DNA of 64,000 nt from assembly GCA_963745835.1 (NCBI GenBank), contig CAVUZH010000003.1:640001-704000 (forward strand), in the 5' to 3' direction. Position numbers and translations under genes: made by a program. Origin of the DNA: an uncultured delta proteobacterium. Its GTDB lineage: Bacteria; Desulfobacterota; Binatia; UBA9968. Positions 4,558-61,840 of this stretch are shown here, piece by piece. The notes beneath the pieces were generated by a model, which saw only the letters and a list, made by a program, of their open reading frames with translations, ran no database searches and had not been told where the DNA came from. Every line of letters begins with the position of its first letter. The stretch's first letter is position 1.

Positions 4558-5034
4558 ATGTTCGTTGAAACCTACAGGCAGGAAAACAGCGGATCCATAA
4601 TGGCAGGAGGGGACGCGAGACCGATACCCTATCCGAAGATCTCTCAGGAGGATTGGCGCGTCTGGACTCTATTTCTTCCAGTCCGATCAGCCAACATCAA
4701 TCGAATTTCCGCTCGGGCCATCAAGGAAGAGTCCCTGCATTTTTCTTACGGAATTCCGTACGCTCTCACAGAAGAGGTGCAGAAAGCTACGGAGTTATTC
4801 GACAAGGTCGAGGTATGGCGCAAACGCGATGTCAGTAAGGATCCGATCGCGGTTGGCGTGCTTGATGGCGAGCGCTATCTGATTGCCCGATGGGGAATGG
4901 AAAAGTTATTGCCGTTTGAGACTATCAAGAAAGCCGTCCCGCTTATCCTGGCTTGGAAGTACGCGACCGGGCCTGCGGGTGCCATGGCCGGTTTAGTCGG
5001 CATGGGTTTTCTCGCGTGGGGAATGCTTTTCTAG
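4558..5034 (+). CDS. hypothetical protein with C-terminal membrane anchor
   Basis: Strong RBS GGGAGGTG; soluble domain containing DPIAVG..YLIARWG; hydrophobic C-terminus. Confidence 0.8.
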   Translation: MFVETYRQENSGSIMAGGDARPIPYPKISQEDWRVWTLFLPVRSANINRISARAIKEESLHFSYGIPYALTEEVQKATELFDKVEVWRKRDVSKDPIAVGVLDGERYLIARWGMEKLLPFETIKKAVPLILAWKYATGPAGAMAGLVGMGFLAWGMLF

Positions 5035-56860: not shown

Positions 56861-57878
56861 ATGAGGGTAAAATCTCTATTGGCTGGATTGTTGGCGCTTT
56901 GTATCGTTCTCAGTTTCAGCGCATCTGCGCCGGCGCAATCTTCGAAGCTGTCGCAGTTAAAATTGGCCGTTTCTACTGCGACTCCGCATAACACCCCGCT
57001 TTGGGTCGCTAAGGGACAAGAAAATATTCGAAAAGTATGGGCTCGATGTCCAGATGTTATTTGTCATGGGCGGATCGCTCGTTAGCCAGATGTTGGCGGC
57101 CGGTGAAATCCAGGTGGCGGCAAATGCGCCCGCCGCTCTGGTGAGTCTAATTGCCGGTGGCGCCGACATCGCCATGTTTCTGGGAATCAGCAACACGTCA
57201 CCTTTTACTTTGATCACGCAGCCTGCGATCAAGACCGCGGCAGATCTCAAGGGGAAGCGCCTCGGCACGGCACGATTCGGCGGCTCCTCCCATATTTCAG
57301 CTTTGATTGCTCTGGACCACCTGGACCTGGATCCAAAGCGAGACAGGATCATACTGATGCAAACCGGCCTGGACCCAGAACGGATGGCGGCGCTGGAGCA
57401 AAAGGGGCTCGATGCCGCGATGCTGCAGCGGCTTGCTACCAAAACGATGATTGGCAAGGGGTATACCCAACTGTTAAATCTCAATCAGGCGAAGATTCCG
57501 TACCAGAATACGGTGCTGGCCTCGCGCAGAGATCAGATGGCGGCAAATCCGAAACTCTATGACAGCTTCATTCGCGCCGTAGTCGAAGGTTACGCTTACG
57601 TGTTTAACAAAGAAAACAAGCAATCGGTTAAGGAGGTTCTGGCGAGAAATCTTAGATTGCCCAACCCGGACGCGGCCGAAGATTTCTACGCAGAGGCCCT
57701 TGAGGAACTCGATCGCAAACCTTATCCGACGGTCGAAGGAACCCAAACTGTGATCAAATACGTTGCGGAGCAAAATCCGAAAGTGGCCTCAGTCAAAGCT
57801 GAGCGGATCGTCGATTCCAGCTGGCTAAAAAAACTCGACGACGAGGGATTCTTCGATAAGGTCTATAAGAGCAAATAG
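56861..57878 (+). CDS. NMT1/SsuA-family substrate-binding protein (split by extra G at 57013-57015)
   Basis: Signal peptide and PLWVAK in ORF 56861; DKKIFEKYGLDVQ...DLKGKRLG..RFGGSSH...PYPT.EG...VDSSWLKKLDDEGF in the frame of ORF 57054. Confidence 0.85.
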
Positions 57879-58555
57879 CCGGATGTGGTTGCGGCGCACT
57901 GTTCGAGCCGTACATATCTTATAACTAAACGCGTTCTTCGAGTAAATGTCCAAAATGCCGTGCTGAGACTATGAATGTATTCTCAGTGTAAAGGGTTCCG
58001 ATGCGAACGATCGAACCGAGGCTGATGCTCTTGCCGTCAGGCGCGATGCCGTTCAGCGCCAGAGTTCTCGTCGGCGAGAAGTGAGTCTAGTTCTCATCGG
58101 TCGGCCCCGGCTTCAGTTCCCGGTACTCATCATTCCAAGAGCGATGCTCTAACGATTACAGCGGCGTCGGAAGTGACTTTGCTTACCGGTCCTATGTTGA
58201 TCGCCGACGCCGCGATCATCTTCCCGTCGATCATTCATTTACCTATCAAAATAACCAAGGTCAGCGACATTTTTCACGGATATCAATTGCGCACGTCTGT
58301 GACCCACAGCATCCGACGATAGCTTGCCTCCCCGGTTGGCGGAACGGGGACAGTTCTCGGCGGCCAGCAAAGCCACAGTCAGAAAATCTTTGCATTTTTA
58401 CTGGTCCCCTGAGTCTTAGCGGGGCGAAATGCAGTGTTTGTGCACGGAAGCTTATGCCCAGATATCCGTGCGCGCGCTTATCGGCTCCGATGCTGGAACG
58501 CCTGTAAGTCATTTTTCATCGAAACCGACCGTCGTCCCTTCTAGGAACTCACGCC

Positions 58556-58671
58556 GAGCTGTAACTTTATAACAGTAGAGCTCTACAGTATAAAATCTTC
58601 AGCTGATAGGGGCTTGCATTTGAGCTCTGGATTATGTTATCGCCAGCTCATGAGAACAACTCCGAGAGCTC
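58556..58671. promoter_or_regulatory. phased array of six S-AGCT-S boxes, exact 22-bp period
   Basis: AGCT starts at 58557, 58579, 58601, 58623, 58645, 58667 (GAGCTG, GAGCTC, CAGCTG, GAGCTC, CAGCTC, GAGCTC); spacers unrelated; ends 27 bp before the dndB ATG. The pattern is certain, the function inferred. Confidence 0.75.
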
Positions 58672-58697
58672 AGCATGCTGCGAGGTGAGGTGATTCA

Positions 58698-59807
58698 ATG
58701 AAGGTCAGTTTTCCAGTTATGAGAGGGAACATAGGCGGGCGGCAATACTACTCATTGATGATCTCGCTTTCGGAAATTCCTCGGCTTTTTAAGTTTAACG
58801 ATTGGGAACAATGCACTCCGGATTTGCGCGCGCAGAGGGTTCTTAACAAGGCGAGGGTCCCCGACATTACGAAATACATACTCGAGAATGAGGACGGCTA
58901 TCTGTTTTCGTCGATTACAGCAGCCTACTCGTGTCCAGCGAATTTCCTAGCGTCAGCGGAGGACTCCGACATCGGCACGTTGGAGATGGAGTTGGAAAAC
59001 GTCGAGTTCATTATCAATGACGGCCAGCATCGTTGCGCCGCGATTGCCGCCGCGCTTAAGGAGAACCCTGCGCTGGGGAAAGATAAAATTTCAGTGCTCC
59101 TGTTTGAAACTGAAAACTCCGAACGGCTTCAACAGATGTTTTCGGATTTAAATCGGTTCGTCCAGCAGACCTCAAAATCGCTGGGCATGCTCTACGATCG
59201 TCGAGATAATCTTTCCGCGCTCACAATGGATGTATCTGAACAGGTGCCCGTCTTTCGGAGCATGGTAGACAAGGAGAAGGTTACGATTCCGCTGAGATCC
59301 CCCAAGCTCTTTACCATTTCCGCTTTATATGAGGCGAATGAAGAACTGTTGGGAAAGAAGATCGATAAAAGGGCGACAGCGGCCTACATAGAACTCCTCA
59401 ACACTGCTGTCGAATACTGGACGGAGTTGTCAAAGATCATCGGCGACTGGCAGAGAGTCAGAAATGGAGAACTCAGCGCTTCCGAACTTCGTCAAGAGAA
59501 AATCAACACTCACGCGGTCGTTTTGCGCGCTCTCGGAGGCGTCGGAAGAACGCTGCTCGGAAGATATCCTGAGGACTGGCAAATGAAACTGAGGCTTTTG
59601 GAGAAAATCGATTGGCGGAAGTCTGTGGGTGGTAGTGCGAATCCTCTGTGGGATGACGTGTGTATCACAGCGGGTTCAGTCGTCTCCAACAGGCAGGCAC
59701 GAGCGGCTACTTTGGCCGTCTTATTAAGAGAGATTGGCGAATCGCCAAATGGAAAGGTGACACACAGAGAATCCCGGGAGGTGACTAGTGCTCAAGCAGC
59801 CGAGTAA
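58698..59807 (+). CDS. dndB: DndB-family DGQHR-domain protein (orphan)
   Basis: FP.MRG..GGRQYY, RAQR.LNK.R.P.I..YIL.N...Y.FSSITA, INDGQHR.AAI, QQMF.DLNR, YD.RD, KLFT.S, H...L.ALG, IDW.K; RBS GAGGTGA. Confidence 0.88.
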   Translation: MKVSFPVMRGNIGGRQYYSLMISLSEIPRLFKFNDWEQCTPDLRAQRVLNKARVPDITKYILENEDGYLFSSITAAYSCPANFLASAEDSDIGTLEMELENVEFIINDGQHRCAAIAAALKENPALGKDKISVLLFETENSERLQQMFSDLNRFVQQTSKSLGMLYDRRDNLSALTMDVSEQVPVFRSMVDKEKVTIPLRSPKLFTISALYEANEELLGKKIDKRATAAYIELLNTAVEYWTELSKIIGDWQRVRNGELSASELRQEKINTHAVVLRALGGVGRTLLGRYPEDWQMKLRLLEKIDWRKSVGGSANPLWDDVCITAGSVVSNRQARAATLAVLLREIGESPNGKVTHRESREVTSAQAAE

Positions 59808-61710
59808 CGGAAGGCGTCACAAAAAATCACGCGTTGCCGATCAGAAAAAATCTGCGGGCAGCAGTCAAAGTTCGATCGATAGCGAAATCACCAGTCATAA
59901 GGAAGATTTAAACACAACTCGCCTGCGGCAGTTGCTCCCGACTGCATGGAACATGATTCGACCATATTGGTCGTCGGAGGACCGCTGGGCGGCTTGGGGG
60001 CTGCTTACCGTCGTTATCGCACTCACGCTAGCGATGGTCTACATGAGTGTTCTTTTCAATCACTGGAACAACACTTTTTACACCGCTCTGCAGGAGAGAA
60101 ATCCTACAGTTTTTTTCGAGCAGCTGATCGGTCTTGCCTGGCTCGTGGGTTTTATAATCGTCTTTGCTGTTTATCAGCTTTATCTCAACCAAATGCTTGA
60201 AATTCGCTGGCGGCGCTGGCTTACCGAAAAATATCTTCGGGGTTGGCTGACTGACGGTGCCTATTATCGGATGCAGCTCATGGCGAGTGAAACCGACAAC
60301 CCGGATCAGCGCATCGCCGAAGACGTTCATCTGCTCATTTCTCATACGCTTTCGCTTGTCATTGGAGGTCTGCGTGCGCTGGTAACTTTGATTGCCTTTG
60401 TGACGATCCTCTGGGCGCTTTCGGGAACCCTGACAGTCCCGATTGGTGGATCATCCCTTACCTTGCCCGGTTACATGGTATGGGCAGCCATCCTGTATGC
60501 TATTGGCGGCACTTGGCTGACCCACTGGATCGGCCGCCCGCTCGTGCGGCTAAACTACGACAAGCAACGTTGTGAAGCCGACTTCCGATTCGGCCTGGTG
60601 CGCTTCCGGGAGAACAGCGAGGGAGTGGCGCTCTACCGGGGCGAGGCGGATGAGCTCCGTGGTTTTCGGGGACGGTTCGAGGCGGTGGTGATGAACTGGT
60701 GGGACATCATGCGCCGACAGAAGCGGCTGACCTACTTCACTTCAGGCTACCAACAAGCGGCTTGGATCTTCCCCTCGATCGTGGCGGCGCCACGCTACTT
60801 CAGTGGCGATCTTTCCCTCGGAGGGCTTATACAAACCATCGGCGCCTTCAGTCAGGTACAGGCTTCGCTTAGTTTTTTTATTGACTCGTATAAAACGGTT
60901 GCTGAATGGTGCTCGGTGGTTGAGCGGCTCTCGGGTTTCGAGCGCGCTCTTGAGCGCGTGCGCACTCAGGCGGCGACTGCTGGCGGCGTTCAGAACGTCT
61001 GCGGAGACGCGGATCTGATAATTAAGGATGTTGATCTCTATCTACCCAATGGTCAGCCACTTATCGCGGATGTGAATGTCTCCATCTTGCGCGGGGACAC
61101 CGTTCTGTTGGGGGGAGCTTCTGGTTTGGGAAAGAGTACGCTCTTCCGGGCCGTAGCCGGGATCTGGCCGTTTGGTCGCGGCGAGATCCGAGGACCTCGC
61201 GACCGCAATGTTCTCTTTTTGCCACAGAAGCCATACTTGCCGATCGGCACACTTCGGGAAGTGGTGAGTTATCCGATGCCGTCCGCGGGTGTGGACGACC
61301 TAACACTGCGCGAAGCGCTTGAGGCGGTCGGGCTCTCTCGGCTAGCGGGGAGGCTCAGCGAGGCCGGCAATTGGGCGCTCCAACTTTCGCCGGGCGAGCA
61401 GCAGCGCATCGCCTTCGCTCGAGCGTTGGTCCAGAAGCCCGATTGGCTGTTTCTCGACGAGGCGACCTCGGCGGTGGACGAGGCCACCGAGGCGCGGCTT
61501 TATCGACTGGTCGGTGAGCGACTCCCGGGAACGACGGTATTCAGTGTAGGCCATCGCGTGACACTACGTCCGTTCCACTCTCGCCATCTTTTGGTGCGGA
61601 CCAACGGGAACGGGCCCTCCTCCATCGTGGAAGTGACCGCCGTGCCTGAATCGGCTCGACGTGGCGTCGGCGTTGTTATGCGCGACGAAACAGCCGCAAT
61701 GGCTGGATAA
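59788..61710 (+). CDS. fused ABC transporter permease/ATPase, YddA / SbmA-BacA (ABCD-like) family
   Basis: RPYW.SE, W...FY.ALQ, IRWRRWLT, DNPDQRIAED, EADFRF.LVR.REN.E..A.Y.GE, GASGLGKST, PQKPYLP.GTLR, LSPGEQQR, LDEATSA. Start codon uncertain (GTG59788 overlaps dndB). Confidence 0.88.
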   Translation: MLKQPSNGRRHKKSRVADQKKSAGSSQSSIDSEITSHKEDLNTTRLRQLLPTAWNMIRPYWSSEDRWAAWGLLTVVIALTLAMVYMSVLFNHWNNTFYTALQERNPTVFFEQLIGLAWLVGFIIVFAVYQLYLNQMLEIRWRRWLTEKYLRGWLTDGAYYRMQLMASETDNPDQRIAEDVHLLISHTLSLVIGGLRALVTLIAFVTILWALSGTLTVPIGGSSLTLPGYMVWAAILYAIGGTWLTHWIGRPLVRLNYDKQRCEADFRFGLVRFRENSEGVALYRGEADELRGFRGRFEAVVMNWWDIMRRQKRLTYFTSGYQQAAWIFPSIVAAPRYFSGDLSLGGLIQTIGAFSQVQASLSFFIDSYKTVAEWCSVVERLSGFERALERVRTQAATAGGVQNVCGDADLIIKDVDLYLPNGQPLIADVNVSILRGDTVLLGGASGLGKSTLFRAVAGIWPFGRGEIRGPRDRNVLFLPQKPYLPIGTLREVVSYPMPSAGVDDLTLREALEAVGLSRLAGRLSEAGNWALQLSPGEQQRIAFARALVQKPDWLFLDEATSAVDEATEARLYRLVGERLPGTTVFSVGHRVTLRPFHSRHLLVRTNGNGPSSIVEVTAVPESARRGVGVVMRDETAAMAG

Positions 61711-61840
61711 TGGTCATCGAACGATTACGATTCTTTCACGTGAGGTCCTGGTGTGCGCGGGTTGGATTGAACTGCCTGGTGAACAGGAAAAAAGTTGAAA
61801 CTTAGGCGCAACACCCGTGTGCGTTACAGCTACCTGCGGC

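Follow-up and report, generated by a model that had tools for sequence, protein, structure and literature searches.

Six copies of the word S-AGCT-S, spaced at exactly 22 bp, lie directly before an orphan dndB gene in the window, ie the whole 64,000-nucleotide stretch of DNA that was analysed. The array is conserved, it is coupled to dndB and its promoter, and its presence correlates with a helix motif in the protein. The reading we favour, with a probability of about three in four, is that the array is a cooperative autoregulatory operator of a DndB dimer of the ParB/Srx fold, and that it has been reused as a controller of varied, often defence, cargo. Judged from sequence, DndB would bind the boxes cooperatively, repress its own promoter and be gated by nucleotide. 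The features are as follows; AGCT positions are counted from the first base of the candidate -35 hexamer.

58556..58671, no strand: array of six SAGCTS boxes with a 22-bp period, proposed DndB operator
58556..58561, no strand: box 1, GAGCTG, AGCT at -57
58578..58583, no strand: box 2, GAGCTC, AGCT at -35; inside GTAGAGCTCTAC at 58575-58586
58600..58605, no strand: box 3, CAGCTG, AGCT at -13; kept in 14 of 14 aligned close relatives, the window included
58614..58619, + strand: candidate -35, TTGCAT, equivalent in position to TTGACA of the orthologues (orthologue alignment)
58622..58627, no strand: box 4, GAGCTC, AGCT at +9; within the -35/-10 spacer
58635..58643, + strand: putative extended -10, TG-T-TATCGC, with an 18-bp spacer
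58644..58649, no strand: box 5, CAGCTC, AGCT at +31; immediately 3' of the -10, at the predicted start site
58666..58671, no strand: box 6, GAGCTC, AGCT at +53; in the 5' leader
58687..58692, + strand: ribosome-binding site GAGGTG, 5 nt 5' of the ATG, read from the sequence
58698..59807, + strand: orphan dndB, 369 aa, with DGQHR at 108-112, an N-terminal ParB/Srx fold and a helical C-terminal domain
59673..59708, + strand: codons 326-337 (GSVVSNRQARAA), a loop and the N-terminal end of the last long helix; candidate for the element that reads the boxes, suggested by co-variation
59788..61710, + strand: ORF of an SbmA/BacA-like ABC transporter, sharing 20 nt with the end of dndB

The six-box array, its promoter and the gene behind it

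The AGCT cores were re-read at 58557, 58579, 58601, 58623, 58645 and 58667, where the initial annotation had placed them, and each of the five gaps is exactly 22 bp. The other details of that description also held: a G or C stands on both sides of the core in all six boxes, one box extends to GTAGAGCTCTAC, and the five 16-bp spacers are unrelated, with pairwise identities of 1-8/16. The spacers are 56-81% AT. No further AGCT box was found one or two periods past either end. The array had been described as ending just before the ribosome-binding site; the order is right and the distance is not, as box 6 ends 15 nt before GAGGTG and 26 nt before the dndB ATG.

The view that chance is an unlikely origin was borne out. 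The expected number of runs of six AGCT at periods of 8-60 is 1.5e-8 in the window, and that of six-runs of any 4-mer in the whole genome is about 3.5e-4. With tandem repeats dropped (runs with at least 60% lag identity), the window array is the sole six-run of any 4-mer at periods of 8-60 in 7.28 Mb. Likewise, the 9,480 SAGCTS sites of that genome form no other 21-23-bp chain with at least three members, so the regulon of other phased arrays that had been envisaged did not appear; seven control palindromes formed no chains in the same genome. A lone 6-bp box with 9,480 genome copies is unspecific, and specificity would thus come from the 22-bp ruler, which gives one address per genome. Among 251 class-level genomes, the three-box pattern occurred only in the window genome, at the dndB locus L006 and in one GC-rich match. 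A tandem repeat or CRISPR-like array was considered and rejected, given the low spacer identity and the lack of any Rfam match to the array region at E up to 1.

Sigma-70 promoters were scored independently of the boxes, and a usable score was obtained in 57 of 78 cases. Relative to the first base of the -35, the AGCT starts fall into two registers, one at -27, -5, +17 and +39 and the other, that of the window's clade, at -57, -35, -13, +9, +31 and +53. In both, the boxes flank the -35 and -10 hexamers and almost never cover them, a layout which is as expected for an operator that must leave its promoter working. At the site equivalent to the window -10 the orthologues mostly have TG-N-TAGAAA, TAGATA or TACAAA. 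The array does span TTGCAT at 58614, as had been claimed, and the letters were confirmed; the window promoter is weak and the blind scan chose a different weak one in the window, so the assignment of TTGCAT and TATCGC rests on homology. Four soil RNA contig sets, compared with 57800-61800, gave no cover over 58068-58871 and thus say nothing on the start site or on expression.

A leader hairpin, GAGCG-N(3-10)-CGCTC, is present in the sister clade (L022:4934-4989, L024:2151-2207, L025:4928-4984, L028:4929-4985 and about 28 other loci) and absent from the window. It sits in the 5' leader, flanked by the +39 box on one side and the last box on the other, and these two boxes can themselves pair as RNA. 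Three of its five predicted pairs have two-sided changes, in rows that were picked by pattern and are therefore biased.

The product of 58698-59807 was identified as DndB by Pfam, NCBIfam and PADLOC. Its match to PF14072 is strong (E 1.9e-103, 346.6 bits, cut-off 29.1) and is the only one in the genome; the match to TIGR03233 is marginal at 329 bits (cut-off 328; canonical DndBs score above 500). No dndC was matched in the window genome, which is 97% complete, and dndCDE are absent after the window dndB, ie the layout is not that of a Dnd phosphorothioation system. The adjacent genes are those for a solute-binding protein and the ABC transporter, with no parA or rep gene beside dndB. The initial annotation had also raised a parS- or iteron-like role, which is disfavoured by the missing parA or rep neighbour, by the single site locked to a promoter and by the conservation of 6 bp only.

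The transporter ORF is likely the second gene of the dndB operon. It starts at a GTG within dndB, behind GGAGGT, and the 20-nt overlap was found again in six relatives.

Occurrence of the array with and without dndB

Relatives of dndB numbered 275 in species-representative genomes, and the best 80 of these were used. Two without a start and two with short upstream DNA were dropped, leaving 76 loci which, with the window, made a set of 77. Four or more AGCT in 21-23-bp steps, allowing one skipped box, were present in 50 of these 77 upstream 250-bp regions; the count was 44 without skipped boxes and 53 for three or more phased AGCT. None of 2,620 control 250-bp segments from the same loci had three or more, and the 22-bp periodicity upstream of homologues, proposed earlier as a check, is thus well supported. 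When all 256 4-mers were compared, only AGCT and words overlapping it exceeded two loci.

The conserved unit is the 6-mer alone. Among 282 phased boxes, G or C occupies -1 in 98% and +1 in 100%, with a weak A/T preference further out. Successive boxes are separated by 22 (143 gaps), 23 (46), 21 (17) or 44 bp (14) and never by 11 bp, and arrays contain up to eight boxes. An alignment of 14 close orthologues showed conservation of the boxes, the -35 and the -10 only; spacer lengths were kept and spacer sequences were not. The carriers bear about 13 phylum labels, have 47-92% protein identity and are mixed on a quick tree, which suggests that promoter and gene have been transferred horizontally as a unit. 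Viral contigs yielded nine relatives only. As the same layout follows dndB through many phyla, the array is most likely a cooperative multi-site operator which derives its specificity from spacing.

In a reverse search, contigs were screened for four boxes at a 22-bp spacing with no regard to dndB. There were at least 109 matches in metagenomes and 18 in viral contigs; flanks were short at 29 loci. A match was called a tandem repeat if spacer identity was at least 0.55 or the period was 11. Among the matches listed, 111 of at least 127 were ordinary tandem repeats, none of which adjoins dndB, and 14 of the 16 non-tandem ones lay directly before dndB codon 1, two of the 14 being identical. The two exceptions in that list look like degenerate repeats. 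Within this sample a non-tandem array is therefore close to diagnostic of dndB.

These results make it very improbable that the boxes are bound by a host factor or other regulator, for example one like RptR, or that they are a decayed tandem repeat or a chance product. RptR does read an AGCT-core palindrome and most of the 22-bp AGCT arrays listed from metagenomes are tandem repeats. However, RptR requires T/A flanks together with a period of 9 bp, in the portion of PMC12255303 available, and T is found at -1 in less than 1% of the 282 boxes. The window spacers are unrelated, and the array follows dndB across phyla and not a host lineage.

Two sets of repeats without dndB were seen in passing. 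Intergenic 22-bp repeats with a CAGCTG/GAGCTG core (L097:1601-1672, L108, L134, L139, L152, L171, L172, L185, L106 and L138) stand directly behind varied genes on gut-type metagenome contigs, and resemble a dispersed family of repeats. In L164:1601-1672, L174:202-273 and L195 the 22-bp repeats are AT-rich and have a WCAGCTGTRA core, with no dndB nearby.

DndB as the candidate reader of the boxes

The window DndB was modelled with a pLDDT of 81.5, and N107-R112, containing DGQHR, is invariant in 63 sequences. For the N-terminal fold, PadC was matched at Z 8.4 (rmsd 3.0 with 100 aligned), KorB at Z 7.0 (rmsd 2.8 with 94 aligned) and sulfiredoxin at Z 6.1. The homodimer model scored 0.73, compared to 0.00 for the best of three controls; the mark applied is one that 20 of 30 solved pairs attain, as does 1 of 23 single chains. 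The dimer runs agreed in at least 77% of contacts at a pLDDT of at least 79 and placed the interface wholly within residues 6-154, although this result may stem from a resemblance to ParB-fold dimers already solved. In the model this N-terminal interface leaves both C-terminal arms free, like those in the published model of DpdB (PMC10164549). The C-terminal domain gave no clear match to a solved DNA-binding fold, and no helix-turn-helix was matched in the protein. The PDB sequence search returned no close structure, only a weak AraR match (E 0.37), and Foldseek returned nothing at E 0.001.

The residues which best separate array-bearing DndBs from the others are 330-335 (SNRQAR); the preceding loop is of low confidence (pLDDT below 50 at 325-328). 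An array is present with 52 of 63 proteins containing [SA]N[RK]Q[AS]R and with none of 24 lacking it, a contrast which is overstated because the motif was chosen post hoc and only about four independent changes are involved. L014 (L014:2428-2677), with THRQAR, has GACATC/GATGTC boxes at exactly -49, -27, -5 and +17. It lies inside the AGCT clade, keeps the standard register and, by its sequence, is a natural specificity variant. L015, with GNRQAR and inside the same clade, has one-mismatch boxes. A 10-row sister clade with NRRQNR-like motifs has words resembling GTATAC or GTAAAC, and lag-22 repeats in 5 of 10 rows compared to 0.8 after shuffling.

The motif and the array do not always occur together. 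Eleven of the 63 motif-bearing proteins have no strict array; the arrays of L020 and L032 are degenerate, and inspection by eye of seven motif-bearing loci (L031, L035, L036, L043, L045, L047 and L060) found none. In L030, whose protein retains SNRQAR, there are three copies of AGACTC at a 22-bp spacing. These cases argue against a simple helix code. The verrucomicrobial DndBs of L031, L043 and L045 (dndB at 5001, 4894 and 5001) have a C-terminal extension to about 490-510 aa; they retain SNRQAR or ANRQAR and the leader hairpin and have lost the array. The extension of the L070 DndB matches sigma-70 region 1.1.

In the mechanism we propose, DndB would dimerise through its N-terminal ParB/Srx nucleotide-binding domain, as modelled, leaving two C-terminal arms; in these the 6-bp SAGCTS would be read by SNRQAR, ie by the loop and the opening turn of the last helix. 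One dimer per palindrome, or dimers bridging adjacent boxes, would each be about 22 bp wide and would sit side by side on one helical face, presumably held by contacts with their neighbours. The resulting coat, over about 115 bp around the sigma-70 promoter, would block RNA polymerase, and, going by the DndB literature, its release would probably be triggered when ATP or GTP is bound or hydrolysed. The cassette of array, promoter and dndB would move horizontally and, as a first gene that limits its own expression, would control the genes placed behind it, often defence genes and, in the window's lineage, the SbmA-like ABC transporter. A same-face, cooperative DndB array on its own promoter had been suggested in the initial annotation; conservation, the reverse search, the register and motif co-variation all favour it, and binding and polymerisation are its putative parts.

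The likeness of the N-terminal fold to PadC and KorB could also mean that the array is a loading site, at which DndB loads, closes on nucleotide as a ParB/KorB-like sliding clamp, spreads and silences at a distance. The relative DpdB has been modelled as a DNA-encircling dimer (PMC10164549, in the part available). However, a sliding clamp needs no strict 22-bp ruler locked to the promoter hexamers, no parA is adjacent, and the fact that boxes are never 11 bp apart speaks for a static lattice. We regard the clamp as unlikely.

Genes downstream of the array and related systems

The 13 closest relatives with downstream DNA have, like the window, an ABC transporter after dndB. In the 22-row clade of the window, all nine members that are not of the Binatia type instead have an 800-aa GHKL ATPase next, with an N4/N6 methyltransferase nearby in seven of the nine. 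The GHKL ATPase had no match in Pfam or PADLOC; its Foldseek matches are topoisomerase VI B, GyrB and Hsp90 (E about 1e-9). The combination of dndB, this ATPase and the methyltransferase, which is often convergent, was seen in L013:5001-9913, L014-L018, L020, L034, L072 and L077, and is a candidate undescribed defence or restriction-type system. Next genes at other loci encode TIR, Schlafen with a caspase-helicase, metallo-beta-lactamase-fold, Old/AriA-like ATPase, UvrD or methyltransferase proteins. In a tally of the 52 array loci, made with crude ORF calls and with L013 miscounted, the next gene is co-oriented and no more than 150 bp away in 29 (often overlapping), co-oriented and more distant in 8, and convergent in 12, and 3 reach the end of the DNA. 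Given the varied cargo and the co-oriented genes, the cassette behaves as a portable first-gene controller.

The loci where dndB is alone in its unit raise the possibility that DndB itself may be an effector. The operator would then mainly restrain DndB, a nucleotide-degrading or otherwise toxic defence protein released on infection, and the downstream genes would be incidental. The 12 convergent loci and the 8 with a gap above 150 bp fit such a role, as do the many defence genes in the neighbourhood; NTP-depleting roles have been proposed for DndB in PMC10853773, the available text of which questions whether it is only a transcription factor. Against this stand the 29 loci with a closely following co-oriented gene and the retention of the transporter in 13 relatives. 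The effector role, which shares its binding model with the favoured operator and differs from it in purpose alone, is possible and less probable than not.

The presence of an N4/N6 methyltransferase near dndB in 11 loci bears on a further suggestion of the initial annotation, that the boxes are phased modification targets (AGCT/GAGC) read as an epigenetic sensor. The promoter would then sense whether AGCT carries m4C or GAGC a phosphorothioate. Phosphorothioation at GpsAGC/GpsCTC is described for a dnd-bearing member of the Lachnospiraceae in the available part of PMC12914056, and in S. lividans the expression of dndB is affected by modified sites close to its promoter (PMC6186775, in part). 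However, neither dndC nor dndD was found in the 80 loci (best 80 of 275), and dndC was absent from 10 other carrier genomes as well as from that of the window. No linked methyltransferase was present in the flanking DNA examined at 44 of 52 array loci, the array is absent from 3 of the 11 methyltransferase loci, and the window genome has no homologue of that enzyme. AGCT is not avoided there (observed/expected 1.01), modification needs no 22-bp ruler, and CAGCTG boxes contain neither GAGC nor GCTC. The sensor is disfavoured and seems quite improbable; methylation may modulate on top of DndB binding.

The nearest known relative in function is DndB (DptB) of Salmonella enterica Cerro 87, a homodimer which binds and represses its own dndBCDE promoter (PMC4507180, as far as the part available describes it). 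Both proteins belong to TIGR03233 and PF14072, contain DGQHR and are encoded by a first gene with palindromic sites over its own promoter. Unlike the Salmonella promoter, with its two TACG-N10-CGTA sites (same source), that of the window has six SAGCTS at a strict 22 bp and no TACG-N10-CGTA, and no dndCDE are present. The C-terminal helix motif is KTSTAI in the E. coli-type DndB and SNRQAR here.

RptR is the best precedent for the proposed mechanism. According to the available part of PMC12255303, it represses a restriction-modification/DarTG2 defence island, its dimers read the 6-bp TAGCTA through helix N-termini, and a single site is bound poorly and arrays cooperatively (Hill 3.4), with a missing middle site tolerated. 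It shares with DndB the position as first gene of defence loci and the AGCT-core 6-bp palindromes arrayed over the promoter, and the tolerated missing site resembles the 44-bp gaps in DndB arrays. RptR is, however, a 79-aa helical protein with no nucleotide-binding domain, compared to 369 aa and a ParB/Srx fold for the window DndB, and its three TAGCTA at 9 bp overlap the -10, whereas the S-AGCT-S boxes at 22 bp spare the hexamers. Membership of an RptR regulon was rejected on the S flanks, the 22-bp period and the 369-aa protein; RptR is an analogue only. The earlier statement that the architecture is undescribed holds for DndB in the literature searched and not for its layout, to which RptR is a close published parallel. 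Titles and abstracts searched contained no phased AGCT operator or orphan DndB regulator; the Salmonella supplement and Xia et al. 2019 may bear on this.

Other systems share single features. The parH site of plasmid TP228, coated cooperatively by ParG, is likewise a short-box array of about 100 bp with AT-rich spacers, but there the protein is ribbon-helix-helix, the boxes are non-palindromic tetramers with short spacers, and the function is partition with ParF (PMC3130281, in part). KorB, PadC and DpdB have the N-terminal ParB/Srx nucleotide-binding fold and an N-terminal dimer interface, and in DpdB the C-terminal domains are modelled as encircling a DNA-sized tunnel (PMC10164549); unlike these, the window has no helix-turn-helix match and no partition or deazaguanine genes. 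No phased operator for the three is described in the available part of that paper or in the literature consulted on them. The WYL-domain proteins BrxR and CapW, as far as the accounts available go, are also mobile first-gene repressors before varied defence systems; they differ in fold, and the CapW ligand is single-stranded DNA. BrxR and CapW operators are a single inverted repeat. Autoregulation by DndB is reportedly modulated by ATP, as Xia et al. are said to have found in 2019. A DndB-like protein bound ATP and GTP (bioRxiv 10.1101/2025.10.10.680097, in part). The portions available of PMC12345140, PMC11662687 and PMC12707154 contain nothing on operators.

Autoregulatory operators and cooperative short-palindrome arrays before defence loci are already known; the two-turn ruler, the nucleotide-binding reader and, likely, the re-codable helix are new among the titles and abstracts searched. 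The array provides a sharp operator model for DndB, consisting of a 6-bp word, a 22-bp ruler and two registers, and also a helix that is a candidate for recognition and of which natural specificity variants exist. It places DndB far beyond phosphorothioation, before GHKL ATPase-methyltransferase, TIR, helicase, nuclease/ATPase and transporter genes. It also offers a compact, possibly nucleotide-gated cooperative switch which bears on the disputed role of DndB as transcription factor or nucleotide-degrading effector (PMC10853773, in the part available).

A wider proposal is made tentatively. Orphan DndB might be a widespread, mobile, nucleotide-gated master switch of defence cargo which, by polymerising along the two-turn ruler, locates a unique site although its word has only 6 bp. 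It would sense the NTP pool and derepress defence genes on infection, and the whole family might share the geometry of about 22 bp and a re-codable C-terminal helix (SNRQAR for SAGCTS, THRQAR for GATGTC, and other motifs for GTATAC, ACGT or ACTTCC). If true, the operator published for Salmonella would have to be seen anew, as one portion of a phased lattice.

Canonical-type promoters were compared on this point. Canonical dndBCDE promoters are rare in the genomes scanned (2/126, 4/401, 2/351 and 1/301), so the comparison rests on 22, 20 of them with dndC seen. Left out were L242 (AGCT type), L092 and L251 (Acinetobacter, no dndC seen), and the distant L252-L254 and L233-L238. Direct 5-mer repeats at a lag of 21-23, with words such as ACGTA and ACTTCC, occurred in 11 of 22 compared to 4.4 when shuffled (0/300 shuffles). 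At lag 22 the figures were 7 of 22 and 1.6, with a best-lag P of 0.027, a modest effect inflated by related loci. There was no excess in inverted-repeat spacing in these promoters (7/22 compared to 5.0). Together with the repeats in the sister clade, the 21-23-bp repeats make the spacing look like a family property which the orphan clade has extended. The E. coli-type L082:2385-2440 has TACG-N10-CGTA once, ie two ACGT palindromes 12 bp apart, and TTACGTAA is repeated 31 bp upstream of it. In the 130 bp before dndB of nine canonical-type loci (L085, L089, L090, L230, L232, L239, L247, L249 and L250), GGAAGT/ACTTCC recurs in direct orientation at 10-12 or 21-22 bp and also forms inverted repeats of the type GGAAGT-N10-ACTTCC.
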